The position numbers and the translations under genes were made by a program. Positions 10,384 to 54,359 of a stretch of DNA of 64,000 nucleotides are shown piece after piece; positions within the stretch are counted from its first letter, which is position 1; the number at the start of each line of letters is the position of its first letter. This DNA is from Alphaproteobacteria bacterium. GTDB taxonomy: Bacteria > Pseudomonadota > Alphaproteobacteria > JAAEOK01. The stretch spans positions 29,320 through 93,319 of the forward strand of contig JAAEOK010000075.1 of NCBI GenBank assembly GCA_024244705.1, written 5' to 3'. The notes under the pieces are model-generated. The model did no database searches and was not told the DNA's origin. It saw only the letters and a program-made list of their open reading frames with translations.

Positions 10384-10554
10384 GGTTTACGCCCAATCGG
10401 AATGATCAAATCATGGCCGACAGGTCCTAATCGATCCCCGCCCCGAGCGAAAGGGTTTTCGGCGCGTCGTGGATTTCATCGGGGCGCATGGTGACCAAAG
10501 CGTGATTTCTTGGCCCTTTCGCGGAATGCGGAGAGCGCCTATATATAGGGCGTC

Positions 10555-19349: not shown

Positions 19350-22300
19350 CTAGTTGCCGAGGTTCTGGATGATGCTTTCGATGCTGAACCCGCCGCCCTG
19401 CGGGGCCGGCTGTGGCGCCGGCGCACCGGGCGCAGCACCCGGCGCATTCTGAGCCTCTGGCGCGGGCAGCGGGGCCGGCCGGATGACGTTGTCGATAATG
19501 GCTCCGAAAGTGCCCTGTGGCTGGGTCTCCGGCGGCGGTGTCGCGGCGGGAGCTGGAACGATCGTTGTCGTCTGCGGCTCGGCCGGCGCCGGAGCCGGGG
19601 TCAGCGGTACCGGCGTCAGCAGCGATGGGCTGCCCGGCAGTCCGGGCGAGGTCGACCCGTCGCCTTCGATGATAATCGTCTCCGGCACCGCCGTAACCGG
19701 CGCTTCGGGGGCCAGCGTCGGCGGTGGGGCGATGGGCAATGTGCCCTGGATAATATCGCCAATGCCGAGACCGGTTCCCGAGCCCGACCCGGTGCCGACG
19801 GCGGGCGTATTGCCGGTCACGCCGGGTAACGCCTGGATCAAACCGCCGACACCACCGGATTCGCCGGAAACGGCGCCCGGCAGCGCCTGGATGAGCCCGC
19901 CGGCGCCGGTTGTCGAGGCACCGGCACCGGGAATATTCTGCAACAATCCGCCGACACCGGTCCCCGCGCGCTCCAGCATATATTTCTGCAAGGCGGCGGT
20001 CTCATAAGAGTTTTGCGGATTGTCGATCGGCCCGGTCATGCTGACCCCGACCGGGACATCGGGAAGCGAAGCGAAATTGAATCTGGCGTTGGCGTTCATG
20101 ACCCATCGCGGCAAGTCCGCGGTGAGGGTGGCGACGCCGATGCCGCCATTGGCGATCAGGCTGACGTCGTCGCTGGTCACGACACCGTCGCGCACGGCGA
20201 AATTGCCCGACAGATTGGAAAAGGCGGTTTCGCCGCCGACGAAGGCCGACCCCACGAGGCCGACAAGCCCGGCCGTGCTCTGCAACGCCGCGATCAGGTT
20301 CTCGCCGCTGCCGCTGTTCAAGCCGGCGAGTTGCCGGTCGACCTTGGCGATATCGATGCCGTCGACGATACCATCGCCGACATGGAGCCGACCGGTGCCG
20401 TCGAGGCTCGAAATCAGGTCGAACTGGCTAATGCCGGCGCCGCTGAGATTGACATCGAGGTCGAGGACGCCGCGCTTGAGCAGCGCCTGTCCTTGCGCCT
20501 TGAGCGCACGCGCCAGATTGGCGTCACGAATGGTAAGATTGAGCGCGGTTTGAACCGGCGATTGCTGCGCCAAGCGCGCGACCATCGTCATGCGACCGCC
20601 GAAAAGGCCGCCGTTGAACTCCGGAATCGACAGCGTCCCGTTGTTGATGGTTACCAGAAGCGTCGGCTCATCGATCCGATAGGGTCCGAAGACCACCCCC
20701 TTCGGCGTCAGCGACAGTTCGCCGTCCACGGTCTTGAGGGCCGAAAAATCGAACGGTTCGCGCGACCAGCGTTCACCGCCGTCCGCAGAATCGTCACCGC
20801 CGGCGAACAAGTCGAGGGGAATTACCCCGGTCGCCAAATTGCCCGTCACCCGCGGCCGCGGCCCGGTCATGACGACCTCGATGGCGCCGTCGAAATCGAT
20901 CGGACCGAGGTTGCCTTTGAGTTGCGAAAGATCGATGACCTCGGCCGATGCGTCCGCGGTGAGGCCGAGGCCGAGCGTTCCAAGATCCTGCGCCGGCGAT
21001 TCGAAGCCGGGCGACAAGGCCGCCAATAGCGCGCGCAGGTCGGGGTGCCGCGCCGACAGATTACCGACATAGCGCGGGCTCGTATCGATCCCGGTTAGAC
21101 GCCCCTTGGCATCGAGACCGCCCTTGCCCAATTTGGCCGAGAGATCCATTTCGACGCCGCCATCGAGGCTCTTGACGGTACCGTCGAGGCCGAAGGCGCC
21201 CAGTGCGGCGGACGCGTCGGTGGTCTCGATGCCGGCGAGGCTCAACGGCAAGGTGGCGTCGGGCAGTGCGGTCGCGATGGCAAGATCGTATGCCGGCGTC
21301 CCCGTCAGGCCCGACACCGTGCCCTTGACCTTGGTGTTGCCGCCGCCGGCTGAAATGTCGACATCCAGCGCGACCTTGTCGGTACCGCCCTCGACCTTGC
21401 CGTCGACCGCGACCGCGCCCAAGTCGTTCACCGCCGGAGGCAGCGAAAGGGCCGCGAGAGCGGCGAGTCGGGCGAGGTCGGGATGCGACAGATCGAGACC
21501 CAAATCGTAAGTCGGCGAGGTACCCAGATTGGCCAACGTACCGGATATCTTCCACTTCCCGCCGGCGGTCGATATGTCGGCGTCGAGCGCAACCCCGTCG
21601 CCGGCGTAGTCGATGTTGCCCGCCGCGCTGGTCGGCCCGAGATCCTTGGGCGCCACCGGCAGGTCGAGCGCCGCAAGACGAGCCACGCCATCGAGTGACT
21701 GGGCTTCGAGATTGAACCGGCCCTTGGCTTGTGGCGCCTCCGGCAAGCCGACGATCTGGCCGTCGAACGCGGCGCGGGCACCGGCGACGTCCTTCGCTGC
21801 GATCTTGCTGACGGTAATCGCACCGTCGGCCAATCTCGCTTCGAGGTCGAGACCGCGCACCGCCGTCTTGTTGTAGGTCAGGCTGCCGACATTGAGCTTC
21901 ACGTTGGCGTCGAAGGCCGTCAGCGCCTCGCTGCCGGTGGCATCATCATCGTCGGCGGCCGCGGCCGCATCGTCGGTCGGCACCAAATAGTCGTCGATGT
22001 TGATCTTATCGACGTTCAGCGCCACGCCGATTCCGGGACGCGCGCCCAGGGCGGCATTGATGCCGCCGGTAATCGTGGTGGCGTCGACCCGCAGCTCGAT
22101 GTCCGATAGGCTGACCGTTTCGGTGCCGCCTTCGATGTCCGTCTTGAGCGCGAACGACCGCAGCCGGTTCGCCGGCACGCCGGTCACCGGCACTTCAAAC
22201 CAATCGGTGATACTGCGGAGATTGGTCGCCGAAGCGATCAGGCGCCCTTTGTATTGCGGTCCGCCGTCAGCGGTCGCAAGGCGCCCCGCGAACCGCAATT

Positions 22301-27141: not shown

Positions 27142-28137
27142 CTATTGCAGCCGTCTCGCCTCGGTTAACAGCCGTTCACCCTCGGCACCGGCCTCCTGCA
27201 GATACAGCTGATAGATGGGTTCGGCCTGGGCGCGCCAATCGGCGATTTGGGCCGCGGTCAGATCGACGACCGTCATATCGGTGTCGGTGCGCAGCCAATC
27301 GAGAAGCTCGAGTTCCACCGCACCATAGCCGGCGCGCAGCTCGCGCTCGACGGCGACAGCGGCGGCGCCGATAATCTCGCGCTCGGCCTCGGACATGCCG
27401 CGCCACAGGTCGTCGTTGATCAACACGACAAAAACCGCCGCCGCCAGGTTGGTGTTGGAGAGGTAGTCCATGACTTCATAGAGGCGTCGCGATTCGACCG
27501 CCCCGACAGCGGTCATGCCATAATCGACGGTGCCGCGCTGATAGGCGAGAAACTGCTCGGAGCCCGACAACAGAACCGGTGCGGCACCGAGCTGCTTGAC
27601 GAATTCACCCAGCATACGCCCGTAGACGCGCACCTTCTTGCCCTTGAGGTCCGACGGCTCGACCAGCGCCTGCCTCTTTCCGACCGTGATCGCGAGGCCG
27701 AAGGGCTGCCACCACAGGGCGCGCGCACCGGTGGAGAGGATATCGGCATCGAGAATCCGGCGGACCGGGCTGTCCGGCGCGATCGCCTCGGCGACGGCGG
27801 CGTTGTCATTGAACAGGAAGGGCAGCGAAAACAACTCGACCGCCGGCCGGGTCCCAGCGAATCGCGTCAACGAAGCCAACCCCATATCGATGGCGCCGCT
27901 CGCAACCGCCTGTGGCACCGCTTTGTCCTTGTAGAGTTGGGCCGAGGGGTAGATCTCGACGCGAATATCACCGCCGGACGCGAGCTCGACGCGGTCCTTG
28001 AATGCCTGAATATTCTGGCCGAGCACATTGGCCAGGGGCAATTGCATGGTCAAGCGTAAAACCCGCTCTGCCCGTGCGTCGATCGGGCTCAGCACGGCGA
28101 CAGCGGACAACAACAGCAATACCGCGAACCTGGTCAT
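27142..28137 (-). CDS. dctP: TRAP transporter substrate-binding protein DctP (periplasmic)
   Basis: Signal peptide MTRFAVLLLLSAVAVLSPIDARA followed by a DctP-family fold. GGGAG lies about 10 nt upstream of the ATG at 28137. The ORF-track extension is rejected. Confidence 0.8.
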   Translation of the reverse strand: MTRFAVLLLLSAVAVLSPIDARAERVLRLTMQLPLANVLGQNIQAFKDRVELASGGDIRVEIYPSAQLYKDKAVPQAVASGAIDMGLASLTRFAGTRPAVELFSLPFLFNDNAAVAEAIAPDSPVRRILDADILSTGARALWWQPFGLAITVGKRQALVEPSDLKGKKVRVYGRMLGEFVKQLGAAPVLLSGSEQFLAYQRGTVDYGMTAVGAVESRRLYEVMDYLSNTNLAAAVFVVLINDDLWRGMSEAEREIIGAAAVAVERELRAGYGAVELELLDWLRTDTDMTVVDLTAAQIADWRAQAEPIYQLYLQEAGAEGERLLTEARRLQ

Positions 28138-28328
28138 TTCGATCTTGTCTCCCGCTTCAGGAAGGTCGTGAGGGATTGCACGATCGGGCAAATCAACGCC
28201 GGGACCGGGCAAACGCCCAACCGGGGTCATTCTATAAGAATTTCGCTGTCCCGTCTGGACATTGCGCCGGTCGGTCGTTCCGGCTACCATTTCAATCGGA
28301 GTCGATGGCAAATTCCGGGGACCGAACC

Positions 28329-28694
28329 ATGTCAGACGATACCACTCTGCCGACGGGGGACGACGCGCAGAAAGCGCGCAACCTGCTGCTCATTACCTAC
28401 GTTCTTTATGGTCTGAGCCTGATCAATGGCCTGACCGCGGTGGCCGGCGTCATCATCGCCCACATCAAGGTCAATGAGGTTACCGACGAGTTTCTCCAAA
28501 GCCACTACCGGTGGCTCATCCGCACCTTCTGGCTCGGCCTCATCGCCGGCATCATCGCCGGCGTGCTGACCGTTATCTTCATCGGCTTCCTGCTGCTGTT
28601 GGTTGTCTTCCTGTGGTACATCTATCGGCTGGTGAAGGGTTTTCTCCGCTTCAACGACGGCAAGCCGATCGAAGACCCGGGCGCCTGGCTCTAA
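28329..28694 (+). CDS. Small integral membrane protein (DUF4870-like, 2-3 TM)
   Basis: MSDDTTLPTGDDAQKARNLLLITYVLYGLSLINGLTAVAGVIIAHIK... The start at 28329 has GGGGA 7 nt upstream; an alternative ATG lies at 28305. Confidence 0.45.
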   Translation: MSDDTTLPTGDDAQKARNLLLITYVLYGLSLINGLTAVAGVIIAHIKVNEVTDEFLQSHYRWLIRTFWLGLIAGIIAGVLTVIFIGFLLLLVVFLWYIYRLVKGFLRFNDGKPIEDPGAWL

Positions 28695-28759
28695 CATAGG
28701 CGACCCGGCGCCGGAATCCGGTTAAGGCGTATCCCGGATATCCTGATCCGGCCAATTCA

Positions 28760-28856
28760 GTCGTCCCGGATGCGTTCAGCACGTCGTGCTGCTTCGCCGG
28801 TCCGGGATCCCGGGTCTGCAGCACACCGCTGCGCGCTGCGCTGCGCCCGGGATGAC
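28760..28856. repeat. Copy A of a roughly 100-bp palindromic MITE/REP-like intergenic repeat with terminal inverted repeats GTC(G/A)TCCCGG ... CCCGGGATGAC
   Basis: gtcgtcccggatgcgttcagcacgtcgtgctgcttcgccggtccgggatcccgggtctgcagcacaccgctgcgcgctgcgctgcgcccgggatgac is about 80% identical to the element at 42301-42402. The two halves are mutually complementary (long imperfect hairpin) with a central CCGGGATCCCGG palindrome. It lies in the convergent gap between the DUF4870 gene and the aryl-CoA ligase gene. Confidence 0.6.
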
Positions 28857-28907
28857 CATTCGGGGAATGCTTCCAGTTCAGCCGTACTTATCGAAGCTCT
28901 AGGATGG

Positions 28908-30545
28908 TCAGGATTCCAACGGCCGCGCCTTTAGCGCCTGGCGATCGATCTTGCCGGTTCCGGTCTTGGGCAACTCGTTGGTGTAGTCGATGATCCGCGG
29001 ATATTTGTACGGCAGCAGCGCGGCCTTGACATAGGCTTGCAGTTCCTTCGTCGTCGCCGCCGACTCCGCGCGGCCGGGTTCGAGGACGACGAAGGCCCGA
29101 ATCGTCATCCGCCGGTCCGCCAGCTCGACGCCGAAGACGGCGCATTCGCGCACGGCGGGATGTTCGGCCAGGCACAGCTCGATTTCGAGCGGATAGACCC
29201 ATTGACCGCTGACCTTGATGAGGTCGTCGGCGCGGCCGCGGAAAAAGTAGAACCCGTCCTCATCCTCGACGAAACGATCGCCGGTCCAGATCCAGTCGTC
29301 GCGCATGGTGTCGGCCGTTTTCTCCGACTGACCCCAATAGCACGGGGCGCTCGAATGACCACGGACGGAAAGGATCCCCTCCTCGCCGGCGGCGACCGGC
29401 GCACCGGCGCGGTCGGTCAGTCGGATCTCGTAACCGGGAACGCGCTTTCCCGCCGCGCCCAGCTTCTTTTGCTCGACCGTATTCGACAGGTACATGTGCA
29501 GCAATTCGGTCGACCCCAGCCCCTCGACGATCTCGAGGCCGAACAGTTCCTTCCAGCCATTGAAGATTTCCGCCGACAACACCTCGGCGGCCGAGACGCA
29601 AAGCCGCAGCGACGAAAGGTCCGCGGTTGCGCTTCGCGGATCCTTCAGCAGGGCCGTGAAGAGCGTCGGCAGGCCGTAGAACACGGTCGGGCGAAATCGC
29701 TCGATCGCGGTGAAAACGGCTTGCGGGTCGGGGCGCCCGGCGAGTAACACCGAGCCGCCGCCGGTGGCGAACGGAAAGGTGACCGAGTTTCCGAACCCGT
29801 AGGCGAAAAAGATCTTGGGCACCGAGAAGCTGATGTCGTCTTGGCCGAGAGCGATGACATGGCGGGCATAGGATTGGGCGGTGTAGAGCATGTCGTGCTG
29901 GAGATGGACGACTCCCTTCGGCCGGCCGGTGCTGCCGGAGCTGTACATCCAGAACGCCATGTCGTCGCGGTCGGTCCGCGCGGCATCGAGCCTGGTCTCC
30001 TGCCCGGCGAGCCAGGTCTCGGCGTCTTTGATCTCGAAGCGACCCGCGAGCGAAGCCAGCCCATTCACGATGACGGTTTCGAGGGCCGTGCCGTCGACCG
30101 TCTCCCCATCGAAACTGTCGGCATAGGCGGCGTCGACGATGGCGGCACGGGCCCGCGAATCCTGAAGATAGAAGCGGACCAACTCGACCGGCGACAGCGT
30201 ATTGATGAGGACCGGTACCAGGCCCGCCCGAATGGCGCCGAACAGGGCCGCCGGATAGACCGGCGTATCGTCGAGGAAGAGAAGCACGCGGTCGCCGCGC
30301 GCGAGGCCGAGTTCGCGGAACCCGTTGCCGAACCGCGCGGCCTGCTCGCAAAGCTGCCGATAGGTCCAATCACCGGTAGCGCCGTAGATCGCGATCTTGT
30401 CGCCGCGGCCGGTCTCAAGATTGCGGAAGAGGATCTCGCTCGCGTTGTAGCGATCAGGCACCGAGAACCCGATCTCGGCCGCACCGGGCGCATCGTCGGG
30501 CACGCGATCGACGATGGTGTCGTCGTCCGACGCGTCCGCGCTCAC
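28908..30545 (-). CDS. Aryl-CoA ligase of the benzoate-CoA ligase family (AMP-forming)
   Basis: YSSGSTGRPKGV AMP-binding motif, plus benzoate/4-hydroxybenzoate/2-aminobenzoate-CoA ligase-like N-terminal (FSVPDRYNASEILF) and C-terminal (GTGKIDRQALKA) regions. A GTG start at 30545 with AAGGAG 8 nt upstream is proposed. The ORF-track start at 30707 would overlap the upstream gene by 160 nt. Confidence 0.75.
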   Translation of the reverse strand: MSADASDDDTIVDRVPDDAPGAAEIGFSVPDRYNASEILFRNLETGRGDKIAIYGATGDWTYRQLCEQAARFGNGFRELGLARGDRVLLFLDDTPVYPAALFGAIRAGLVPVLINTLSPVELVRFYLQDSRARAAIVDAAYADSFDGETVDGTALETVIVNGLASLAGRFEIKDAETWLAGQETRLDAARTDRDDMAFWMYSSGSTGRPKGVVHLQHDMLYTAQSYARHVIALGQDDISFSVPKIFFAYGFGNSVTFPFATGGGSVLLAGRPDPQAVFTAIERFRPTVFYGLPTLFTALLKDPRSATADLSSLRLCVSAAEVLSAEIFNGWKELFGLEIVEGLGSTELLHMYLSNTVEQKKLGAAGKRVPGYEIRLTDRAGAPVAAGEEGILSVRGHSSAPCYWGQSEKTADTMRDDWIWTGDRFVEDEDGFYFFRGRADDLIKVSGQWVYPLEIELCLAEHPAVRECAVFGVELADRRMTIRAFVVLEPGRAESAATTKELQAYVKAALLPYKYPRIIDYTNELPKTGTGKIDRQALKARPLES

Positions 30546-31687
30546 GGGCTGATCTCCTTCGCCGACCGACGGTTCAGATATTCGCCCACGAAGCCTGGTG
30601 AATTCGCCCGCAGGCGCTCGGTGTCGACGCGGCCGCTGCGCTGGATATAGCGCCAGGCGAGGTTCCAGGCATCGAGTTCCATATGCCGACCGAAACTCTC
30701 GTACCACGCGCCGCTCGCATTGGCCGCGGCGACCAGCTTTTCGACGATCGGCCGCCGTTCTTTCTCATAACTTTCGAGCGCCCTGGGCACGTCATCGCCA
30801 TGCATCTCGAGCGCCTCCGCCAGGGCTATGGCATCCTCGAGGGCGAGCCGCGTCCCGGAGCCGATCGAGAAATGCGCGGTGTGCAGCGCGTCACCGACGA
30901 GCACGGCATTGCCGGCAGACCAGCGGCGGTTGGACACTCGGGGAAAATTCCGCCAAACCGACTTGTTGGAAACCAGGGAATGGCCATCGAGATCTTCGGC
31001 GAAAGTCTCCTCGCAATAGGATTTCGTCTCGGCTTCGGTCATTTCCGCAAAGCCCGCGCGCGCCCAGGTCTCGGCGTCGGTCTCGACGATGAATGTGCTC
31101 ATCCCCGGCGCGTAACGATAATGGTGCGCGTTGAAAACGCCGTCGGCGGTTCGGTGGAATGTCTGGGTAAGCGTCTCGAACGGCTTGGTCGTGCCGTACC
31201 ACACGAACTTGTTCGAGAAATAGGTAACCGACGCGCCGAAGGCATCCTGGTAGGTGCCGCGGACCAGCGAATTGACGCCGTCGGCGCCGATCACGAGATC
31301 GGCGTCGGCCAATTCATCGAGACTGTCAATTCGACGGCCGAAGTCCGGTCGGAGGTCGACCGAGGCGACCCGCGATTGGAGGAGGCGTAGCAGCTCCAAG
31401 CGGCCGATCGCCGAGAAGCCGATGCCGTCGATTGCGATGATCTCACCGTCATGGACAATGCGAAGGTCGTGCCAGGTTTCGAGGCTGGGCCGGATGAGGT
31501 CGTAGGTTTCGCCATCGTCGGCGCGCAGGAACTCGAGGGCGCGGTCGGAGAAAACGACACCGAAGCCGAAGGTCGCATCGGGCGGGTTCTGCTCGACCAG
31601 CCAGATTTCTGCATCGCCGCGACGCCGCTTGAAGAGATAACTGAAATAGAGACCCGCCGGCCCGCCGCCGATGACCGCCACCCGCAT
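30542..31687 (-). CDS. FAD-dependent aromatic-ring monooxygenase (UbiH/salicylate-hydroxylase-like flavoprotein)
   Basis: Rossmann dinucleotide motif VAVIGGGPAGL, a DG/GD FAD fingerprint (LVGDALHTAHFSIGSGTRLALEDA) and a C-terminal domain. Start taken at the second ATG (MRVAVIGGG), which has GAGGAG 6 nt upstream. Its stop overlaps the ligase GTG start (GTGA). Confidence 0.75.
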   Translation of the reverse strand: MRVAVIGGGPAGLYFSYLFKRRRGDAEIWLVEQNPPDATFGFGVVFSDRALEFLRADDGETYDLIRPSLETWHDLRIVHDGEIIAIDGIGFSAIGRLELLRLLQSRVASVDLRPDFGRRIDSLDELADADLVIGADGVNSLVRGTYQDAFGASVTYFSNKFVWYGTTKPFETLTQTFHRTADGVFNAHHYRYAPGMSTFIVETDAETWARAGFAEMTEAETKSYCEETFAEDLDGHSLVSNKSVWRNFPRVSNRRWSAGNAVLVGDALHTAHFSIGSGTRLALEDAIALAEALEMHGDDVPRALESYEKERRPIVEKLVAAANASGAWYESFGRHMELDAWNLAWRYIQRSGRVDTERLRANSPGFVGEYLNRRSAKEISP

Positions 31688-31759: not shown

Positions 31760-34700
31760 CTACCCCGCCGCCTCCCTGGTCTCGCCGGCGCTGCCGAAGC
31801 CACCGCCGCCCGGCGTTTCGACGACAAAGACATCGTCCGGCCCGAGCTCGATCTTGTCGGTCGGCCCGAGCTCGACGATGGTACCGTCCGCGCGCTCGAC
31901 ATAGTTGTGTCCGAGCGCGCCGGTCTCGCCGCCGGCCATGCCATAGGGCGCGACGCGGCGATGGTTGGACAGGATCGCCGCCGTCATCGGTTCGAGGAAC
32001 TTGATCCGGCGCACCGCGCCATCGCCGCCGCGATGCACGCCGCCCCCACCCGAGCCGCGGCGAATGACGAAGGATTCGACCATCACCGGGAAGCGCCATT
32101 CGAGCACTTCGGGATCGGTCAGGCGCGAGTTGGTCATGTGTGTATGGACGGCGTCGCAGCCGTCGAAATCGGGCCCCGCGCCGGAGCCGCCGCAGATCGT
32201 CTCGTAATACTGGTACCTGTCGTCGCCGAAGGTCAGGTTGTTCATCGTGCCCTGGGACGCGCCCATGACGCCGAGCGCGCCATAGAGCGTGTCGGTGATC
32301 ATCTGGCTGGTCTCGACGTTGCCGGCAACGACGGCGGCCGGATATTGAGGGTTCAGCATCGAGCCTTCCGGGATGACGATACTGAGCGGCTTGAGGCAGC
32401 CCTCGTTCATCGGGATCTCGTCATCGACCAGGGTACGGAAGACATAGAGCACGGCCGCCCGGCAAACCGCCGACGGCGCGTTGAAATTATTGGGCAGCTG
32501 GTCCGAGGTGCCGGTGAAATCGATGGTCGCGCTGCGCGCCGCCTTGTCGATGGTGACGGCGACGTGGACCTCGCCACCCTCGTCCAGGGGATAGGTGAAT
32601 TCGCCGTCCTTGAGCACGTCGAGGACACGACGCACCTGTTCCTCCGCGTTGTCCTGGACGTGGCCCATATAGGCGTGGACGACATCGAGACCGAAATGGT
32701 CGACCATGCGGCGCAATTCCTGGACGCCCTTCTCGTTGGCGGCGATCTGGGCGCGCAGGTCGGCCACGTTTTGGTTGGGATTGCGTGCCGGATAAGCCCC
32801 CGAATCGAGCAATTCCCGCAACTCCGGTTCGCAGAACCGGCCGCGGTCGACCAAGGTGAAGTTGTCGATCAGGACGCCTTCCTCCTCGACCGTCGTGCTG
32901 TCCGGCGGCATCGAGCCCGGCGTGATACCCCCGATATCCGCATGGTGGCCGCGCGAGCCGACATAGAACAGGATGGTCGCGCCGGCGTCATCGAACACCG
33001 GAGTGATCACTGTGATGTCGGGCAGGTGCGTACCGCCGTTATAGGGTGCGTTGAGGACATAGACGTCGCCCGGCGCCATGGTGCCGCCGCGTTCGCGGAT
33101 GATGGCTCGCACGCTCTCGCTCATCGAGCCCAGATGGACCGGCATGTGGGGCGCGTTGGCGATCAGCTGCCCGTGCTGGTCGAAGATGGCGCAGGAGAAA
33201 TCGAGCCGTTCCTTGATGTTGACCGAATAGCTTGTGTTTTCGAGCGTCGCGCCCATCTGCTCGGCGATCGACATGAACAGGTTGTTGAAGATTTCCAGCA
33301 TCACCGGGTCGACTTTGGTGCCCACCGCGGAGGCCCGTTGTAGCGGCACCACGCGGGTCATGACGACATGGTTGCGCGGCGTGATCTCGCCCTGCCAGCC
33401 GGGCTCGATGACCGTCGTGCTGGTCGCCTCGATGAGCACGGCGGGACCGTCGATGCGGTGCCCGGGCCGAAGCGTCTCGCGGGCATAGACCGGGGTCTCG
33501 TAATTGCCGCCGCCGCTGACCATGGCGACCCGGGCCAGGGCGTCGGGCAACGCCGATGGCGCGCCCTGCTCGGCCACCACCGGATCTTCGACGGTTTCGG
33601 TCAGGCCGATGACCTCGACCGCCACCGCCTCGACGACATGGGGCTTGTCGGGGACGACGAAGCCGTAGCGCTGGCGATGGGCGTGCTCGAAGCTCGCGAT
33701 GATGACCTGGGTATCGCCGAAATCGACGATCAGCGGCGCATCGGTGCCGTCGTAGCGGAGGTGGATCGTGTGCTTGACGCGGATGTGGTCGTCGTCGATG
33801 CCCTGGGCGCGCATTTCGGCACGGCCTTCGGCCTCGAGCCGTTCGAGCACGGCTTTCAGGTCGGGTAAAATCTCGTCGCCGAGACGGGCCTCCACCGCCT
33901 GTTCGCGAATCACCCGCATATCCGCGAGACCCATGCCATAGGCCGACAGCACGCCGGCGAAGGGATGAAGGAAGACCCGTGTCATGCCGAGCGCGTCGGC
34001 GACCAGGCAGGCGTGCTGGCCGCCGGCGCCACCGAAGCAGCAAAGGGTGTATTCGGTGACGTCATAGCCGCGCTGGATCGAGATCTCCTTGATCGCATTC
34101 GCCATGTTATCGACGGCGATGCGGAGAAATCCCTCGGCGACTTCGACCGGCGTGCGGGCGTCTCCGGTGCGAGCCTTGATCTCGGCGGCCAACGCGGCGA
34201 ACTTGTCACGAACCACGTCGCCGTCGAGCGGCCGGTCCGCATTGGGCCCGAACACCTTGGGGAAGAATTCGGGCTGGATCTTGCCCAGCATCACATTGCA
34301 GTCGGTGACCGCCAACGGACCGCCCCGCCGGTAGCAGGCGGGACCAGGATTGGCGCCCGCCGATTCGGGACCAACGCGGTATTTCATGCCGTCGAAAACG
34401 AGGATCGAGCCGCCACCGGCGGCGACGGTGCGGATCTGCATCATCGGCGCGCGCATGCGGACGCCGGCGACCTGGGTCTCGAAGGCGCGCTCGTATTCCC
34501 CGTTGTAATGGGACACGTCGGTCGAGGTGCCGCCCATGTCGAAGCCGATGATCTCGCCGAACCCCGCCATCTCGGCGGTCCGCACCATACCCACCACGCC
34601 GCCGGCCGGACCCGACAGGATGCTGTCCTTGCCCTGGAAGAAGCGGGCGTCGGTCAGGCCGCCGTTGGATTGCATGAACATCAGCCGGACGTCGCCGAGC

Positions 34701-37945: not shown

Positions 37946-38683
37946 ATGAGCGTCTGGGGCAAGATTCTAGGCGGCGCGGCCGGCTTCGCGATGGGCGGGC
38001 CGTTGGGCGCGCTGGTCGGCGTGATCGCGGGACACGCGGTCGACCGATACCGAACGCAACAGAGCGATGACGTCGACCCCGACGCGGCGACCAAGCGCAT
38101 CGCCTTCACCATTGCGGTCATCGTCTTGGGCGCCAAGATGGCGAAGGCCGACGGCGTCGTCACCAAGGACGAAATCAACGCCTTCCGCGAAGTCTTCCAA
38201 GTTCCGGAGAACGAGATCAAGAACGTCTCCCGCGTCTTCAACCAGGCGCGGCAGGACGCACGCGGGTTCGAGCCCTACGCCGAGCAAGTCGCGCGCATGT
38301 TCCGCAATCATCCGCGGGTGCTCGAGGAACTGCTCAACGCGCTGTTCCACATCGCCCGCGCCGACGGCGTTTATCACGCCAAGGAAAAGGAATTCCTCCA
38401 TCGCGTTTCGGAAATCTTCGGCTTCGACGCGGCGACCTTCAGCCGTATCGAGGCCGAACAGATGGGGCCGCAGAAGGCCGATCCTTACGTCATCCTCGGG
38501 ATGACCCGGGAGGCCGGCGATGCGGAACTGAAATCGGCCTACCGCAAACTGGTGCGCGAGAACCACCCGGATACGTTGGTCGCCCAAGGCATGCCGCAGG
38601 AGTTCATCGATCTCGCCAACGATAAGCTGGCGACGATCAACGGTGCCTGGGACCGGGTCAGCAAGGAAAGGGGAATAAGCTGA
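37946..38683 (+). CDS. djlA: DjlA-like co-chaperone (N-terminal TM, TerB-like domain, C-terminal J domain)
   Basis: TM helix at the N-terminus and a C-terminal J-domain with HPD (DPYVILGMTREAGDAELKSAYRKLVRENHPDTL). Confidence 0.7.
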   Translation: MSVWGKILGGAAGFAMGGPLGALVGVIAGHAVDRYRTQQSDDVDPDAATKRIAFTIAVIVLGAKMAKADGVVTKDEINAFREVFQVPENEIKNVSRVFNQARQDARGFEPYAEQVARMFRNHPRVLEELLNALFHIARADGVYHAKEKEFLHRVSEIFGFDAATFSRIEAEQMGPQKADPYVILGMTREAGDAELKSAYRKLVRENHPDTLVAQGMPQEFIDLANDKLATINGAWDRVSKERGIS

Positions 38684-39563: not shown

Positions 39564-41378
39564 ATGTCGGCACCGCCGCTCACGACCATCGCCGACATCC
39601 ACCTCAGGCTCGGCGATAATGTGCTTTTTGAAGGCGTCGATCTCCGCATCGGCGCCGGCGAAAGGGCGTGCTTGGTCGGCCGCAATGGCTCCGGCAAGAC
39701 GACATTGCTGCGAATGCTGGCGGGAGAAATCGAACCGGATAGCGGCGACACGTTCTTGCAACCGGGCACCCGGCTTGCCTACCTGCCCCAGGAGCCGGTC
39801 CTGGCACCGGATCAGACGGTGCTCGAGTATGTGTCCGCCGGCGGCGCCGCGAGCCACGAAGTTGACGCCGCGCTCGATCAGGTCGGTCTCGATGGCGCGC
39901 GCCCGCTACATTCGCTCTCCGGCGGCGAAGGTCGGCGTGCCGGTCTGGCGCGGGTCTTGTCCGGGCGGCCGGATATCCTGTTGCTCGACGAGCCGACCAA
40001 CCATCTCGACCTCGCGACAATCGAATGGCTCGAGCGGACTCTCCGCGACTATCCCGGCTCGGTGCTGGTCGTCAGCCACGACCGGACCTTTCTCGCCAAT
40101 GTGAGCAATCGGACCCTGTGGCTCGACCGCCGCCGCCTGCGGCGCCTCGACAAGGGGTTTGCAGCCTTCGATTCGTGGCAGGAAGATGTCTACGCCGCCG
40201 AGGCCCGAGCGGTCGAGAAACTCGACAGCAAGTTGGCCGCCGAAGCGCGTTGGCTGCATCGCGGCGTGACGGCGCGGCGGCGGCGCAATCAGGGTCGTCT
40301 GCGCCGCCTGCAGGATCTCCGCGCGGTCCGCGCAACCCTGATCGGTGAGAAAGCGCGCGCCAAGATCGCCGCCGAGGACGGCGAGTTGAAAAGCCGTGTC
40401 GTCATCGATGCCAAGGACCTGTCCAAGAGCTTTCCCGGCGCCGACCAGCCCCTATCGATCGTCAACGGTTTTTCGACCCGCATCCTGCGCGGCGACCGCA
40501 TCGGTATCCTCGGCCCCAACGGCGCCGGAAAGACGACATTGCTGCGGCTCTTGGTCGGAGATCTCGAGCCCGACGGCGGACGGGTGCGCTTGACAAAGAG
40601 CCTGACCGTGGCCTATTTCGACCAGCATCGTGCGATTCTCGACCGCGAGCAGACCCTGTGGCAGACCCTGTGCCCCGGCGGCGGCGACACGGTCTGGGTG
40701 CATGGCCGGCCGCGCCACGTGGTGGCCTACCTGAAGGATTTCCTATTCGATCCGAAGCAAGCCAAGAGTCCGGTCAGCAGTTTGTCCGGCGGCGAGCGCA
40801 ACCGCCTGCTGCTGGCTAAGATCCTGGCCCGGCCGAGCGAGCTGTTGGTGCTCGACGAACCGACCAACGACCTCGATATGGACACCCTCGAGCGGCTCGA
40901 GGACATGCTGAGCGACTATCCGGGAACGTTGCTGCTGGTCAGCCACGACCGAAATTTCCTCGATCGCATCGTCACCGGTACGATCGCCATGGAAGGGGAC
41001 GGCCGGGCCACCGAGTACGCCGGCGGCTACAGCGACTATCTAACCCAGCGCAAAGAAAACAGGCGCGGGGCGGTCGCGTTCAAGGCGCCCAAGAGCGAGG
41101 CGGCGCCACGGACCAGAGAGCGGCCGCGCCGGCAAACGAAGCTGAGCTACAAGGACCGGCGTCAGCTCGAAATCCTGCCCGGCCTGATCGAGGCGATCAG
41201 CGCCGAGATCGCCACGCTCGAGGACAAATTGTCCGATGGCGCCTTTTACACCACGGACCGCGAGGGCTTCGACGGCGCCACTAGGCGTCTCGAAGAAGCG
41301 ATCCAGGAGCGAACAAAGATGGAGGATCGCTGGCTCGAACTCGAGACACTGAGCGAGTCTCTGGAACCGACCGGCTAG
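39564..41378 (+). CDS. ABC-F family ATPase (two ABC domains, no TM; Uup/EttA-like)
   Basis: Tandem Walker A (GRNGSGKTT, GPNGAGKTT), two LSGGE signatures and an inter-domain linker. Confidence 0.85.
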   Translation: MSAPPLTTIADIHLRLGDNVLFEGVDLRIGAGERACLVGRNGSGKTTLLRMLAGEIEPDSGDTFLQPGTRLAYLPQEPVLAPDQTVLEYVSAGGAASHEVDAALDQVGLDGARPLHSLSGGEGRRAGLARVLSGRPDILLLDEPTNHLDLATIEWLERTLRDYPGSVLVVSHDRTFLANVSNRTLWLDRRRLRRLDKGFAAFDSWQEDVYAAEARAVEKLDSKLAAEARWLHRGVTARRRRNQGRLRRLQDLRAVRATLIGEKARAKIAAEDGELKSRVVIDAKDLSKSFPGADQPLSIVNGFSTRILRGDRIGILGPNGAGKTTLLRLLVGDLEPDGGRVRLTKSLTVAYFDQHRAILDREQTLWQTLCPGGGDTVWVHGRPRHVVAYLKDFLFDPKQAKSPVSSLSGGERNRLLLAKILARPSELLVLDEPTNDLDMDTLERLEDMLSDYPGTLLLVSHDRNFLDRIVTGTIAMEGDGRATEYAGGYSDYLTQRKENRRGAVAFKAPKSEAAPRTRERPRRQTKLSYKDRRQLEILPGLIEAISAEIATLEDKLSDGAFYTTDREGFDGATRRLEEAIQERTKMEDRWLELETLSESLEPTG

Positions 41379-41382
41379 CTCC

Positions 41383-42261
41383 ATGCGCCCCGTTCACATC
41401 GTGCTCGCGGTCGCCGTGATGGCGATTTGGGGATTGAATTTCGTCATCGCGAAGATCGGGTTGATGCATCTCGATCCATTGATGCTGACCGGTTCCCGTT
41501 TCGCTCTGGTCGCCGCGATGCTGCTGCCGTTCGTCGGCCGGCCCCGCGGCCAGTGGGGATCGATCATCGTGCTGTCGCTGGTCATGGGCAGTCTCCATTT
41601 CGGCTTCATGTTCTATGGCCTGCGCGGCATCGATGCTTCGGTCGCCTCCATCGCCATCCAAATGCAGGTCCCCTTCGCCGCTCTGCTCGCCGCCTTCTTC
41701 TTCAAGGATTATCTCGGCTGGCGACGTTTGTTGGGCATGGCAGCCGCCATCCTCGGCGTCGTCGTTCTGGCCGGAGAGCCGCGGTTCGACGGCAACCTTC
41801 TGCCGCTTGGCCTGGTCATCGCCGCATCGCTGATGTGGGCGTTCGGCAATATCGTGATCAAGCGCATGGGCCCGATCGACGGCTTCCAGCTCAACGCCTG
41901 GCTGTCGCTGTTTACCGCGCCCCAACTTCTGCTCGCCTCGTGGGCCTTCGAGCCCGGCGCGGCCATAGCGCTGGTCGATGCCCCATGGCAGGCCTATGCG
42001 GCCATCCTCTACATGGCGGTGATGGTCACCATCGTCGGCTATGGCGCGTGGTATTTCCTGATCCCGCGCTACGAGGTCAACCAGACCATGCCGTTCACCC
42101 TGTTGGTGCCGCTGTTCGGCGTGCTGTCCGGTGTCACCATGCTCGACGAAGCCCTGACCTGGCGGGTCCTGGTCGGCGGTACCGCGATATTGGCCGGTGT
42201 CGCGGTCATCATCATCCGCCGCCCGCGCATGATCGCGCCGGAAGCGCAGCCCGACCGCTAG
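41383..42261 (+). CDS. EamA/DMT-superfamily transporter
   Basis: 10-TM protein with two EamA repeats. Confidence 0.8.
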   Translation: MRPVHIVLAVAVMAIWGLNFVIAKIGLMHLDPLMLTGSRFALVAAMLLPFVGRPRGQWGSIIVLSLVMGSLHFGFMFYGLRGIDASVASIAIQMQVPFAALLAAFFFKDYLGWRRLLGMAAAILGVVVLAGEPRFDGNLLPLGLVIAASLMWAFGNIVIKRMGPIDGFQLNAWLSLFTAPQLLLASWAFEPGAAIALVDAPWQAYAAILYMAVMVTIVGYGAWYFLIPRYEVNQTMPFTLLVPLFGVLSGVTMLDEALTWRVLVGGTAILAGVAVIIIRRPRMIAPEAQPDR

Positions 42262-42300
42262 GTCCAATCAGCGTTTGATTGATTCGACCTTCGCCCCTTC

Positions 42301-42402
42301 GTCGTCCCGGATGCGATGCGGCACGAAGTGCTGCTTTGCTAATCCGGGATCGATCCCGGTTCTGCGGTGCACCGCTTCGCGCTGCGCCGCGCCCGGGATG
42401 AC
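42301..42402. repeat. Copy B of the roughly 100-bp palindromic MITE/REP-like repeat (see 28760-28856)
   Basis: gtcgtcccggatgcgatgcggcacgaagtgctgctttgctaatccgggatcgatcccggttctgcggtgcaccgcttcgcgctgcgccgcgcccgggatgac. Same termini GTCGTCCCGG/CCCGGGATGAC and the same internal CCGGGATC(GA)TCCCGG palindrome. It lies in the convergent gap between the EamA gene and the GT2-GtrA gene. Confidence 0.6.
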
Positions 42403-42482
42403 GGAAATGAGACCGCCACGTCGCTCTCTCCCCATTTAGAATCGGAGCGATGCAATCAAAAACTGAAATTCTCTAGCCCTTC

Positions 42483-43571
42483 CTAGCGCTTGCGCCAGGT
42501 GAAGGTGGCGTTCATGCCGTAGTTCCACACCGCGCCGACGACGGCACCGCTGAACCCGGCGAGGAACCAGATCACACCCCGATCGAAGAGAAACTGAGCG
42601 ACGGTCACGTTGATCACGGCGCCGATGCTGCACGCGGCGTAGAAGGTTGCCAGGCCGCGCAGCGCGAGCCAGCCGCCGAGCCGTCGTTCGCGGAACGTGA
42701 TGATGTTGTTGAGGTGAAAGTTGACGGTCATCGCAACGATGGTGGCGATCGCCTGCGACCACATGAACGGAAACTCGCCGATCCGGAACAGCAAGCCGAG
42801 CAAGGTCAGATGCACGGCGAGGCCGCCCAACCCGACCATTACGTAAAGCATGAACCCGACCGGGATCCAGCCGCGAAACAGCTTGTCGAGGACCAGCATG
42901 AGGAATTCGAGCGAGACCAGAACGTCGAGCTTGCTCTTGCCCGAATGGCGCGCGCGGAAGTGGAACGGCAGTTCCCGCACCGGCACCGGGCGGCGCACCG
43001 TGGCGAGAATGTCGAGCAGGATCTTGTAGCCGCGCGCGGTCAATCCGTGGGCCGCCTCATCGAACAGTTCGCGCCGCAACATGAAGAAGCCGCTCATCGG
43101 GTCGGTGAGCGGCATGCGCGTCACGATCCGGCTGATACGGCGCGCCAGCAGGCTCATCCGCTCGCGTGTCGATGACGACAACCCTTCGGCGCTGCCGCCT
43201 TCCAGGAAGCGGCTGCCAACAACGATCTCGACATCCTCGCTCTTCAGCACCTCCAACATCGTCGGCAACAAGGTCTCGTCATGCTGGAGATCGGCGTCGA
43301 TGACGGCAACGAAGGGCGTTTCGGTTGCCAGGATGCCTTCGATGCAGGCCGAGGACAATCCGGATCGGCCGATGCGGTGGATCACCCGGACCCGGTCATT
43401 CTCTCGCGCCAGCCGTCGCAGTTCATCGCCCGTTCCGTCGATCGAATCGTCGTCGACATAGACGATTTCCCAGGCGTCGCTATCGAATGCGCGGCCGATG
43501 CGTTCGAACAGCGGCCGGACGTTGCCGACCTCGTTGAGGGTCGGCACGATGATGGCGAGTTCCACGGTCAC
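42483..43571 (-). CDS. Family-2 glycosyltransferase fused to a C-terminal GtrA-like 4-TM domain (polyprenyl-phosphate sugar transferase type)
   Basis: GT2 DXD context (IVYVDDDSIDGT, VIDADLQHD), then a GtrA-like membrane domain. Confidence 0.8.
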   Translation of the reverse strand: MTVELAIIVPTLNEVGNVRPLFERIGRAFDSDAWEIVYVDDDSIDGTGDELRRLARENDRVRVIHRIGRSGLSSACIEGILATETPFVAVIDADLQHDETLLPTMLEVLKSEDVEIVVGSRFLEGGSAEGLSSSTRERMSLLARRISRIVTRMPLTDPMSGFFMLRRELFDEAAHGLTARGYKILLDILATVRRPVPVRELPFHFRARHSGKSKLDVLVSLEFLMLVLDKLFRGWIPVGFMLYVMVGLGGLAVHLTLLGLLFRIGEFPFMWSQAIATIVAMTVNFHLNNIITFRERRLGGWLALRGLATFYAACSIGAVINVTVAQFLFDRGVIWFLAGFSGAVVGAVWNYGMNATFTWRKR

Positions 43572-44562: not shown

Positions 44563-44962
<400 letters not shown>

Positions 44963-48968: not shown

Positions 48969-50430
48969 ATTGATGGAAGCGAGTGGAATGGAAAACCGAC
49001 CGACGGCGGCGATGGAGAACACGGAAATCCATGGTTTGACCATGGATTCGCGCCGCGTCGAGCCCGGTTTTCTCTTCGCCGCCGTTCCCGGATCGCATGC
49101 CGACGGTCGAGATTATATCGCCCAGGCCGTCGCCCACGGCGCGGCCGCGGTTCTGGCGCCGCTCGATACGCCGCAAGAAATTCTACCGGAGGAAATTCCA
49201 CACCTTCTCGATTTGAACCCGCGCCGCCGCCTCGCCTTGATGGTAGCGGCCTTCTATGGACGGCAGCCGCAGCACGTCGCCGCCGTCACAGGCACCAACG
49301 GCAAGACTTCGGTCGTCAGTTTCACGCGCCAGATTTGGGCGCATCTCGGTTACCCGGCGGCGAGCCTTGGCACTCTTGGTATTGAGGCCTCGCATTATTG
49401 CGAAACCCTCTCCCTGACCACACCCGACCCAGTGGCCTTGATCCAGGAGATTGCCAAGCTCGCCGACCGGGGCGTTACCCACCTCGCCTTCGAGGCCTCG
49501 AGCCACGGATTGGAGCAATTCCGCATCGACGGGGTTCGCGTCACCACCGCCGCGTTCACCAACCTGTCGCGCGATCATCTCGACTATCACGGCTCGATGG
49601 AGACCTATCTGGCCGCCAAGGCGCGCCTGTTCCGCGAGGTCATGGCGCCCGGCGGCGCCGCGATTCTGAATGCGGACGCGCCCGAGTTCGAAAGCCTCGC
49701 CGCGCTGTGCCGCGACCACGGCCACGGCGTTATCGAGTACGGCCGCGCGGGACGGGAGCTGCGACTCGTTCGCCAAGACCTGGACCCGGGCGGCCAGGAT
49801 CTGACGATTGCGATCGATGGCGCGGTCCACCATATCCGGCTGCCGTTGACCGGCGCCTTCCAGGCGATGAACGCCCTCGCCGCGCTCGGCCTCGTCATCG
49901 CCGAAGGCGGCGAACCGAATGCCGCCGTCGCGGCGCTGGCGAAACTTCAGGGTGTGCGCGGCCGGCTCGAGCCGGTCACCGGCCATCCCCGTGGCGCGGC
50001 TATTTTCGTCGATTACGCGCACACGCCCGGTGCCCTTCAAACGGTCCTGGAATCGCTGCGGCCCCACACCCGGGGGCGACTGTTCTGCGTCTTCGGCGCC
50101 GGCGGCGACCGCGATCGCGGCAAGCGTCCCGCGATGGGCGCCGCCGCGGCCCGCAGCGCGGACGTGGTTTTCGTAACCGACGACAATCCTAGAACCGAAG
50201 ACCCGGCAGCCATCCGCGCCGAAGTCCTCGCCGGCTGCCCCGGCTGCGAAGAGATCGGCGACCGCGCCCGTGCGATCGCCCGCGCCGTCGCCGAACTAAG
50301 GCCCGGCGATACCCTTCTGATCGCCGGCAAGGGTCACGAGCAGGGCCAGACGGTCGGCAACCGGGTTATTCCTTTCGATGACGTGACGGTCGCGCGCGAT
50401 GCTGTGGTTGCGCTTGAGGATGAGCCGTGA
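48955..50430 (+). CDS. murE: UDP-N-acetylmuramoyl-L-alanyl-D-glutamate--2,6-diaminopimelate ligase MurE
   Basis: Mur ligase domains (GTNGKTS, and a DNPR motif in the C-terminal domain). GTG start at 48955 with AAGGAAAGG upstream; alternative ATG at 48973. Confidence 0.8.
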   Translation: MRLSELMEASGMENRPTAAMENTEIHGLTMDSRRVEPGFLFAAVPGSHADGRDYIAQAVAHGAAAVLAPLDTPQEILPEEIPHLLDLNPRRRLALMVAAFYGRQPQHVAAVTGTNGKTSVVSFTRQIWAHLGYPAASLGTLGIEASHYCETLSLTTPDPVALIQEIAKLADRGVTHLAFEASSHGLEQFRIDGVRVTTAAFTNLSRDHLDYHGSMETYLAAKARLFREVMAPGGAAILNADAPEFESLAALCRDHGHGVIEYGRAGRELRLVRQDLDPGGQDLTIAIDGAVHHIRLPLTGAFQAMNALAALGLVIAEGGEPNAAVAALAKLQGVRGRLEPVTGHPRGAAIFVDYAHTPGALQTVLESLRPHTRGRLFCVFGAGGDRDRGKRPAMGAAAARSADVVFVTDDNPRTEDPAAIRAEVLAGCPGCEEIGDRARAIARAVAELRPGDTLLIAGKGHEQGQTVGNRVIPFDDVTVARDAVVALEDEP

Positions 50431-52964: not shown

Positions 52965-54359
52965 ATGATCGACGTCGCCAGCTTCAGGGATCGCGCGATC
53001 GCCGTCATGGGCCTCGGCCGGTCGGGGCTGGCGGCGGCGGAATCACTGATCGCGAGCGGGGCGGACGTTTCGGCTTGGGACGATACCACGTCACAGCGCG
53101 AGGCGGCGGCGGGACGCGGCGTTCCATTGCGCGACCTCCAGAAGGTCGATTGGCGGCCCTCGGATACGCTGGTCTTGAGCCCCGGCATAGCCGACACGCA
53201 CCCGGCGCCCCACCCGGTCGCCGCCGCGGCGCGTGACGCCGGCGCCGCGGTCATCTGCGATATCGAACTGTTGTATCGCAGCCAGCCCAAGGCCGCCTAC
53301 GTGGGTGTTACCGGAACCAACGGCAAGTCGACGACGACGGCGCTGATCGGCCATATCCTCAAGGCGGACGGCCGCAATATCGAAGTCGGCGGCAACCTCG
53401 GCCCACCGGCGTTAGCCATGCGCGCCCTCGGCGATGGCGATTGCTATGTTCTGGAGCTTTCCTCGTATCAGCTGGAACGTATTCCGTCGGTCGTATTCGA
53501 TGTCGCCATACTGCTGAACATCACGCCCGACCATCTCGACCGGCACGGCGGCATGGACGGATATGTCGCCGCCAAGGCGCGCATCTTCAACGGCCAAGGT
53601 CGGGGCCAGACCGCGATCGTCGGTGTCGACGACGGTGCCTCCCGTTCGATCTACGACAAGCTGCGCGCGCGGCGCACGAACGACGTGGTGCCGATCGCCG
53701 TTGGCAAGCCGATCGCCGGCGGCGTCTATGTTCTGGACGGCATATTGACCGATACCGGCGGCGCCAATCCCACCGAAGTCGCCGACCTCCGCGACTTGAA
53801 CGGCTTGCCCGGTGCCCACAATTGGCAAAATGCCGCTGCCGCCTATGCCGCCTGCCGTGCCATCGGCATCGCCCCAAACATCATCGTGGATGGTCTTATA
53901 AGTTTCCCCGGCCTCCCGCACCGGCAGGAATTGGTCGTTGTCGTCGACGGCATCACATTCATAAACGACAGCAAGGCGACCAATGCCGACGCGGCCGAAA
54001 AAGCACTACTTTGCTATGACAATATCTATTGGATCGCCGGCGGCCGGGCCAAAAGCGGCGGCATCGCCGACCTCAAACGCCACATCGACCGCATCGCCCA
54101 CGTCTTTTTGATCGGCGAATGCGCGGACGATTTCGCCGTCCAGTTGGATGGCGGCGTCGCCCACACGATTTCGGGAACCCTGCCAGCCGCCGTCGACGAT
54201 GCCTACAGCGCGGCGCGGTCCGATGGCCGCCCGGGCGCGGTGGTATTGTTGTCGCCGGCCGCCGCGTCGTTCGACCAATTCGCCAATTTCGAAGCGCGCG
54301 GAGAGGCTTTCCGCCGCAGCGCAGAGGCCATTGCCGCGCGCCAGGGGACGGCATCATGA
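52965..54359 (+). CDS. murD: UDP-N-acetylmuramoylalanine--D-glutamate ligase MurD
   Basis: GLGRSG Rossmann motif, GTNGKSTTT. Confidence 0.9.
   Translation: MIDVASFRDRAIAVMGLGRSGLAAAESLIASGADVSAWDDTTSQREAAAGRGVPLRDLQKVDWRPSDTLVLSPGIADTHPAPHPVAAAARDAGAAVICDIELLYRSQPKAAYVGVTGTNGKSTTTALIGHILKADGRNIEVGGNLGPPALAMRALGDGDCYVLELSSYQLERIPSVVFDVAILLNITPDHLDRHGGMDGYVAAKARIFNGQGRGQTAIVGVDDGASRSIYDKLRARRTNDVVPIAVGKPIAGGVYVLDGILTDTGGANPTEVADLRDLNGLPGAHNWQNAAAAYAACRAIGIAPNIIVDGLISFPGLPHRQELVVVVDGITFINDSKATNADAAEKALLCYDNIYWIAGGRAKSGGIADLKRHIDRIAHVFLIGECADDFAVQLDGGVAHTISGTLPAAVDDAYSAARSDGRPGAVVLLSPAAASFDQFANFEARGEAFRRSAEAIAARQGTAS

Follow-up and report, generated by a model that had tools for sequence, protein, structure and literature searches.

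Two intergenic palindromes of an alphaproteobacterial contig as probable head-head dimers of long-loop CGTC-tagged REP units linked to Ssn-type nucleases

Results

The locus and its two palindromic elements

The stretch of DNA analysed here, which we call the window, is 64 kb long and alphaproteobacterial, with an alpha-type tmRNA and an RNase P RNA (Table 1). It contains two similar palindromic elements, copies A and B. Copy B follows the stop codon of a gene for an EamA-family transporter by 38 nt and precedes by 79 nt the stop codon of a convergent gene for a GT2 + GtrA glycosyltransferase; both the Pfam matches and the strands agree with the position between these genes that a first-pass annotation had assigned to it. 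Copy A is placed in the same way, between a Yip1-like gene and a gene for an AMP-binding enzyme, so that both copies sit between convergent genes, 38-79 nt from stop codons. The sequence of copy B, GTC...GAC, was found where it had been reported, and extends over 42300-42403 once the flanking C and G that complete the CGTC tags are counted.

The second copy had been described as about 80% identical to the first, and a global alignment gives 83 of 102 positions (81%), or 86% over ungapped columns. The termini common to the two copies, also described earlier, are identical over 15 nt on the left and 14 nt on the right. At the dimer centre, B has CCGGGATCGATCCCGG and A has CCGGGATCCCGG; the centre of B is longer by 4 nt, or by 2 bp in each arm, a central loop longer by 2 bp having been noted before. 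Beyond their ends, copies A and B have unrelated flanks on either side. A search for the exact terminal 14-mers found them at only four sites in the 64 kb, all of them ends of copies A and B. Across the window, a covariance model of the repeat unit (model R1) finds exactly four units, which score between 52 and 73 bits (E from 5e-13 to 3.5e-19); below them, the first unrelated match reaches 13 bits. A candidate third copy at 32364-32377 was rejected, as it lies within coding sequence and has no hairpin partner. In Rfam, no family reached the gathering score for the element in a search of the whole window, nor did any appear at E values up to 10 around it, and a literature search with GTCATCCCGG as a literal string returned only unrelated primer matches.

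Other repeats were seen in the window. Three 32-nt repeats at 19822-19958, spaced by 54 and 51 nt (CCGGGTAACGCCTGGATCAAACCGCCGACACC and variants), probably represent a repeated peptide motif within a coding region. The gene for a 604-aa ABC protein contains direct repeats within 39676-40962 (39676-39745 versus 40510-40579, and 39945-40095 versus 40812-40962), which are expected from its two ABC domains (two ABC_tran stretches). A similarity of 72 nt links 49561-49632 with 53517-53588.

Table 1. Positions of the repeat elements, their parts and neighbouring genes in the window.
Feature	Position	Strand	Match or remark
tmRNA gene, alphaproteobacterial (permuted, two-piece)	10513-10841		Rfam
Yip1-like gene beside copy A	28002-28694	+	
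Copy A	28760-28856		Head-head dimer, tags outward
Copy A, left REP unit (A-type, tag AGTC)	28759-28809	+	Model R1, 52 bits, E 5e-13
Copy A, right REP unit (G-type, tag GGTC)	28806-28857	-	Model R1, 72.7 bits, E 3.5e-19
AMP-binding enzyme gene beside copy A	28908-30707	-	Convergent with Yip1-like gene
EamA-family transporter gene	41383-42261	+	PF00892, E 1.2e-33
Copy B	42301-42402		Head-head heterodimer of two units without spacer, tags outward
Copy B, left REP unit (A-type)	42300-42351	+	Model R1, 66.3 bits, E 2.8e-17
Copy B, left unit, CGTC tag	42300-42303	+	
Copy B, left unit, basal stem	42304-42311 with 42343-42350		
Copy B, left unit, inner helix	42313-42324 with 42328-42339		
Copy B, left unit, GAA triloop	42325-42327		Tail C at 42351
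Copy B, right REP unit (G-type)	42352-42403	-	Model R1, 72.8 bits, E 3.5e-19
GT2 + GtrA glycosyltransferase gene	42483-43571	-	PF00535, E 3.8e-29; PF04138, E 1.5e-17
RNase P RNA gene, bacterial class A	44566-44962		Rfam; about 1 kb beyond the GT2 gene bordering copy B

Anatomy and folding of the units

Instead of one long hairpin, each element comprises two units of about 52 nt that are inverted relative to each other, with the GTC tags pointing outward. Read from its tag, a unit consists of (C)GTC, a basal stem (A/G)TCCCGGR, an inner helix GC-RGYGCRGCRY, a 3-nt loop that is mostly GAA, the returning strands, YCCGGGAT, and a C. It folds alone into a two-helix hairpin, with an unpaired (C/T)GTC before it and the C after it. 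The basal stem (ATCCCGGR/YCCGGGAT) has 8-9 bp, the first pair being G-T in both left units, and the 33 nt between its halves form the second helix, of about 11 bp, which is capped by the 3-nt loop. What is conserved is this unit hairpin, and not a single long hairpin.

With DNA parameters, the left and right units of copy B fold at -15.8 kcal/mol (z = -5.0) and -19.1 kcal/mol (z = -3.7), and those of copy A at -14.9 kcal/mol (z = -5.2) and -22.4 kcal/mol (z = -4.8). On the minus strand, the right unit of copy B reads CGTCATCCCGGGCGC...GCGAAGC...CCGGGATC and adjoins the left unit tail to tail; the units of copy B abut exactly, and those of copy A overlap by a 4-nt GATC. Both copies appear under DNA parameters as two unit hairpins each, closed by a short tag-tag stem (4 bp in B). 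Under RNA parameters, copy B becomes one long hairpin (-73 kcal/mol, z = -7.8) and copy A two hairpins. Because the choice between one long and two shorter hairpins depends on the parameter set, energy alone is not decisive.

The window units score 52-73 bits with model R1 on the tag-sense strand versus 17-21 bits on the opposite strand (only 17.5 bits for the left unit of copy B), and this asymmetry shows that the units are oriented. Positions G2, T3 and C4 are invariant, GTC being present in 22/22 aligned units; among 69 units, the preceding base is C 40 times and T 19 times, and the tag of copy B is CGTC at both ends. A C stands directly after the stem in 65 of 69 units, and in 28/28 of a further count. 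Left units are 80% identical to each other and right units 84%, as against only 63-71% between left and right, which indicates that the dimer, an A-type plus G-type heterodimer, was copied as a whole.

In most units of this long class, the inner helix is interrupted at columns 22/34 of the unit alignment, where a G usually faces an A or a G in a conserved mismatch. The left unit of copy B has a G-C pair there (42321/42331). This mismatch may be a recognition feature rather than noise.

Covariation supports the unit hairpin

The first-pass annotation had taken compensatory changes between the arms of the two copies as a sign of structural constraint. Within the unit hairpin, a single two-sided change between A and B keeps the pairing (G-C to A-T, columns 16/40, right unit); an arm-to-arm model adds one more (A-T to T-G), which lies inside the unit loop, and the remaining changes are one-sided or disruptive. 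With A and B differing nearly without compensatory change, the two copies cannot carry that claim.

Across the family, covariation is strong, and it is covariation for two separate unit hairpins. In alignment A2, which comprises 22 long-class units from 10 genomes, including those of the window, 95% of the cells pair and 8 of 19 pairs have two-sided changes, over 42 cells; the covariation score was reached in none of 500 shuffles, and in slid controls 28-42% of the cells pair. The basal stem (columns 5-12 with 46-53) is 96.6% paired, pair 12/46 covarying between G-C and A-T, and is a helix that the extraction pattern partly imposes. The inner helix (columns 14-27 with 31-42), which that pattern does not impose, is 93.8% paired, with two-sided changes in 6 of its 11 pairs. 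A larger set, A3, consists of 121 matches of the model, in loci that had been retrieved with a protein and not with a DNA pattern, and shows 93.9% pairing (92.3% in the basal stem) and 13 pairs with two-sided changes, a score reached by 0/500 shuffles, in an alignment that was fitted to the model and so favours the structure.

Among 38 dimers, 19 mix A-type and G-type stems, and mixing in about half of the dimers weakens arm-to-arm pairing. The structure under constraint is the unit hairpin and not the arm-to-arm pairing. As for the broader claim of an old, dispersed, REP-like family under structural constraint, it is borne out by this covariation together with the distribution described below.

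Distribution and dispersal

Species-representative genomes were scanned for both termini, and only two-sided matches were used, one-sided chance matches being numerous in Actinobacteria. No copy beyond A and B exists in the 64-kb window; the additional copies that the annotation had led us to look for were found in other genomes, two-sided elements being present at a minimum of 36 loci (at least 36), mostly in Alphaproteobacteria (Hyphomicrobiales, Caulobacterales and others). The genome labels include Bosea, Pseudorhodoplanes, Xanthobacteraceae, Microvirga, Beijerinckiaceae, Ancylobacter, Caulobacterales, Vineibacter, Amphiplicatus, Usitatibacter, which is outside Alphaproteobacteria, and one Saccharopolyspora. 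Units fall into two classes, of about 37 nt and about 52 nt, and those of the window belong to the latter. The window holds four units in two dimers within 64 kb, and in related genomes several elements occur within one 8-kb locus. Four Bosea species carry one and the same dimer, spacer included, at non-homologous loci, and the likeness ends exactly at GTC...GAC; a single orthologous locus for these four elements was rejected, given that the flanks do not align.

The GT2 protein beside copy B has a 100% match in one MAG, its next relatives being 71-72% identical, and the source lineage is poorly sampled. One locus (L124), where the GT2 orthologue is 72% identical, still has EamA as its convergent neighbour, across a 36-nt spacer that lacks the element, from which it follows that the element is not an ancestral part of the EamA/GT2 pair. 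Another (L122), with a 71%-identical GT2 orthologue, has no EamA neighbour and a different downstream neighbour; downstream of its GT2 gene, at about 4180-4265 in the minus-strand view, is a tandem duplication of about 41 nt, with GCTGTTGACCCAGAGCGGACATTTGTCGTGCTAGCCT present twice.

Three further loci deserve mention for their arrangement. A 1.7-kb contig of a very fragmented NCBI assembly (L001; GCA_024449835.1, JAANTA010857215.1) has at 1437-1538 a sequence identical to copy B base for base, beside an identical EamA gene, and hence the same organism is present in a second dataset. In a Usitatibacter MAG (L045, about 1517-1658), five CCGGGAYGAC tag-stem motifs with an exact spacing of 33 nt lie beside a head-head dimer; this run is a tandem array of unit fragments. 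In Amphiplicatus metriothermophilus (L039, 255-375), two long-class units have their tags inward, forming a tail-tail dimer with a 17-nt spacer, an arrangement reported as rare for CGTC repeats.

Relationship to CGTC-tagged REPs

What kind of element is this? CGTC-tagged REPs are defined by an unpaired CGTC or TGTC tag (the variant CCTC being allowed), a stem of 8-9 bp that starts with A-T, T-A, a short tail and a loop of 4-5 nt, other loop lengths having been noted only for CGTC-1 of Bradyrhizobium (Di Nocera, De Gregorio and Rocco 2013, PMC3733652). They predominate in Alphaproteobacteria, mainly as head-head dimers with the tags outside and often as heterodimers, are located 3' of coding regions, between convergent or co-directional ORFs, and form families of tens to thousands of units per genome; no associated transposase was found for them, and no RAYT gene flanked by CGTC repeats (PMC3733652). 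The window units have the unpaired terminal tag, the 8-9-bp stem and a tail starting with C, and they form head-head heterodimers between convergent ORFs, a combination that is shared especially with the CGTC-1 head-head dimers. They differ in the loop: in place of 4-5 nt, an insert of 27 nt is found, in which a second helix with a conserved mismatch ends in a GAA-type triloop. Between the units of a dimer, the spacing is 0 or -4 nt, in contrast to the usual 20-100 nt, and the tags of copy A are AGTC and GGTC instead of CGTC or TGTC. Judged by its sequence, the window element belongs to the CGTC-tagged REP superfamily, as a long-loop subclass.

A close parallel is offered by Br-REP1 and Br-REP2 of Bradyrhizobium japonicum, which overlap the 3'-UTRs of convergent genes, are transcribed and yield small RNAs (Hahn et al. 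2016, PMC5082802). They share the three-palindrome composite with the window element: the CCGGGATCGATCCCGG junction of copy B has its counterpart in the Br-REP1 centre CCGGAATCTCGAGATTCCGG, and ...ATTCCGGG..TTCG..CCCGGAATGA in Br-REP2 equals a unit ending in a GAC tag. Differences are the basal stem, ATTCCGG in the Br-REPs versus ATCCCGG in the window, the short inner helices of the Br-REPs, and the transcription shown for them.

Association with Ssn-type GIY-YIG nucleases

One member of the CGTC superfamily, the Neisseria NTS (CGTCATTCCCGCGMAVGCGGGAATCYRG), is a substrate of SsnA, a GIY-YIG nuclease of 94 aa with a single domain, which binds and cuts it exclusively as ssDNA (Nat Commun 2025, PMC11893778). 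The cut falls upstream of the NTS hairpin; binding depends critically on the C that follows the palindrome, and cleavage on the 3 nt that precede it. Ssn-related motifs usually stand on the flanks of genes for Ssn homologues (PMC11893778). The role shown for the Neisseria enzyme is the restriction of incoming ssDNA, and no mechanism of transposition is known for Ssn. The NTS/dRS3 layout, CGTC-AT-palindrome-AT-C, is the layout of the window unit, and the positions critical for SsnA are the most conserved positions of the window unit class. The hairpin is oriented, with G2, T3 and C4 invariant, the 3' C conserved and the model scores strand-asymmetric.

No Ssn-like ORF was detected in the 64-kb window (best tblastn E value, 4.7). 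Such a gene was found at a locus (L077) whose units are rows of our unit alignment: a long-class unit ends 18 nt before a 94-aa GIY-YIG ORF (5556-5837; PF01541, E 7e-15), and 31 nt after the ORF a head-head dimer begins. The label Ssn-type, for a small single-domain GIY-YIG gene of putative cd10448 type, is based here on the Pfam GIY-YIG match, the length of 94 aa and an identity of 51-56% to homologues flanked by the NTS core. Using the L077 protein, 80 metagenome loci with homologues were fetched. A GTC-tagged hairpin lies within 250 nt of the gene at 76 of the 80, on both sides at 58, and the density of such hairpins is 6.5/kb near the gene versus 1.6/kb further away. At 13 of the 80 loci, the gene has long-class units of at least 40 bits on either side, no further than about 140 nt away; at most of these 13, the outermost units have distal tags, which places the gene inside a head-head arrangement. 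The exact Neisseria NTS core, CGTCATTCCCGCGCAGGCGGGAATC, stands at the flanks of some homologues (51-56% identical). Identity between nuclease proteins is higher when their genes have the same stem class at the flanks than when they do not (64.8% versus 58.3%, 0/2000 permutations), a co-variation of protein and stem class that may partly reflect shared phylogeny.

At one locus (L158, 2093-2943), at least eight long-class units in alternating orientation surround a GIY-YIG gene (2501-2773), in a layout resembling a BIME-like array.

The published SRM pattern, HGTCWYN(0-2)YYVSBRHN(0-5)WNVSBRGN(0-2)RNCYNB, matches none of the four window units, because their inner helix exceeds its loop of 0-5 nt; when the loop was relaxed to up to 35 nt, the pattern matched the right unit of copy B only. 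The only strict match of this pattern in the window, at 38488-38517 on the plus strand (CGTCATCCTCGGGATGACCCGGGAGGCCGG), is probably due to chance: it lies inside an ORF of 245 aa (37946-38683) and scores 9.7 bits with the unit model.

Discussion

We consider that the observations as a whole are best explained if copies A and B are head-head dimers of CGTC-tagged REP units tied to Ssn-type nucleases, and we give this reading a probability of about 0.68. How might such dimers have reached their present positions? By analogy with SsnA and the NTS of Neisseria (PMC11893778), a putative cognate Ssn nuclease would bind the hairpin of a single-stranded unit through the stem and the 3' C, and its nick would fall within the GTC tag region, immediately before the stem on the 5' side. 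If the same holds here, the geometry with the tags outward would put two nicks at the outer borders of the element. A dimer without a gene, as in the window, may then be the cargo-free counterpart of a 'REP-ssn-REP' module, and, on the same analogy, would be copied as a unit into intergenic DNA at gene ends and tolerated there. Once transcribed from either of the convergent genes, it would form a very stable 3'-UTR hairpin, which may protect the 3' ends of the mRNAs.

This last step leads to a rival in which the element acts primarily as RNA, as a bidirectional terminator or 3'-end stabiliser common to EamA and GT2 as convergent genes, or to the Yip1-like and AMP-binding genes in the case of copy A, and the link with nucleases is incidental. 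The place of both window copies, between convergent genes and close to their stop codons, the very stable RNA fold of copy B and the head-head symmetry, which offers the same structure to both transcripts, would all suit such a role; so would the Br-REPs, which have the same architecture, overlap convergent 3'-UTRs and yield small RNAs (PMC5082802), and the E. coli REPs, which stabilise mRNA 3' ends (cited in PMC5082802). However, no T/U run follows the hairpin on either strand of copy B, the flanks being GGAAATGAGACC on the plus strand and GAAGGGGCGAAGG on the minus strand, and a terminator scan of 41900-42900 gave no site at the element, which is not a canonical intrinsic terminator. An RNA hairpin also leaves unexplained why the GTC tag is unpaired and invariant, why the 3' C is conserved, why the units are oriented and why they flank GIY-YIG genes, and the orthologous gene pair of L124 does without the element. 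We regard a primary RNA role as rather unlikely, at about one chance in five, and as compatible with the nuclease-linked dimers that we favour, which it does not exclude.

Mobile elements of other kinds provide two further rivals. The design of the REPIN, in which two inverted, imperfectly palindromic REPs form a larger hairpin that is copied as a unit, is the same as that seen here, and in Pseudomonas and Enterobacteria REPINs are mobilised by RAYT, an IS200/IS605-like tyrosine transposase. The triloop stems of the present units, C-GAA-G and GCGAAGC, are of a type that is unusually stable in ssDNA, which would suit the recognition of ssDNA hairpins. REPIN-RAYT systems and E. coli BIMEs also resemble our elements in their inverted REP doublets and in the single-copy gene flanked by the same repeats. 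Nevertheless, the tag is (C/T)GTC and not GTAG, and the gene found between the present units encodes a GIY-YIG nuclease, unrelated to the HUH tyrosine transposase of the REPIN-RAYT systems. A motif scan of all fetched loci revealed one RAYT-like ORF, in an unrelated chance-match locus (L032), and the absence of RAYT genes flanked by CGTC repeats (PMC3733652) points in the same direction. Mobility has population-level support for REPINs (PMC3116915), and none of this kind for CGTC repeats. We therefore consider a RAYT-mobilised REPIN very improbable. Slightly less probable still is that a DDE insertion sequence gave rise to a classical MITE here, or that these are two chance or duplicated palindromes that belong to no family. 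Terminal inverted repeats, small size and intergenic position would fit either, and the first-pass annotation had spoken of a MITE/REP-like palindromic repeat; the REP-like part of that description stands, and the classical MITE part does not, since there is neither a target-site duplication nor a DDE-type parent. The bases flanking copy B are CCCCTTC and GGAAATG and those flanking copy A are CAATTCA and CATTCGG, and direct repeats are likewise lacking where the four Bosea elements begin and end. The termini are not shared with any IS, none of the loci examined showed a relative with a transposase, and the 'terminal repeats' are themselves conserved hairpins with covariation. Chance is excluded by the elements with both termini at no fewer than 36 loci of other genomes.

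For annotation, our reading of copies A and B as nuclease-linked dimers means that the two conspicuous intergenic palindromes would be entered as CGTC-type REP dimers, and not as terminators, small-RNA genes or MITEs. The element is of a known kind: its superfamily is known and the partner enzyme family has recently been identified, and the long-loop subclass to which it belongs is missed by current patterns. Since the SRM pattern misses the long two-helix class that flanks Ssn-type genes (13 metagenome contigs and L077), surveys may undercount both the repeats and the range of hairpins that the Ssn family may recognise. More tentatively, and with the odds against it, we speculate that the 52-nt two-helix unit could be an undescribed specificity class of Ssn-related motifs, that the gene-less head-head dimers could derive from an IS-like 'unit - ssn - unit' module and lack its cargo, and that Ssn-type nucleases could be the missing enzyme that spreads CGTC REPs, a GIY-YIG analogue of the RAYT/REPIN system. 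Each pair of repeat and enzyme is a candidate sequence-specific cutter of ssDNA.
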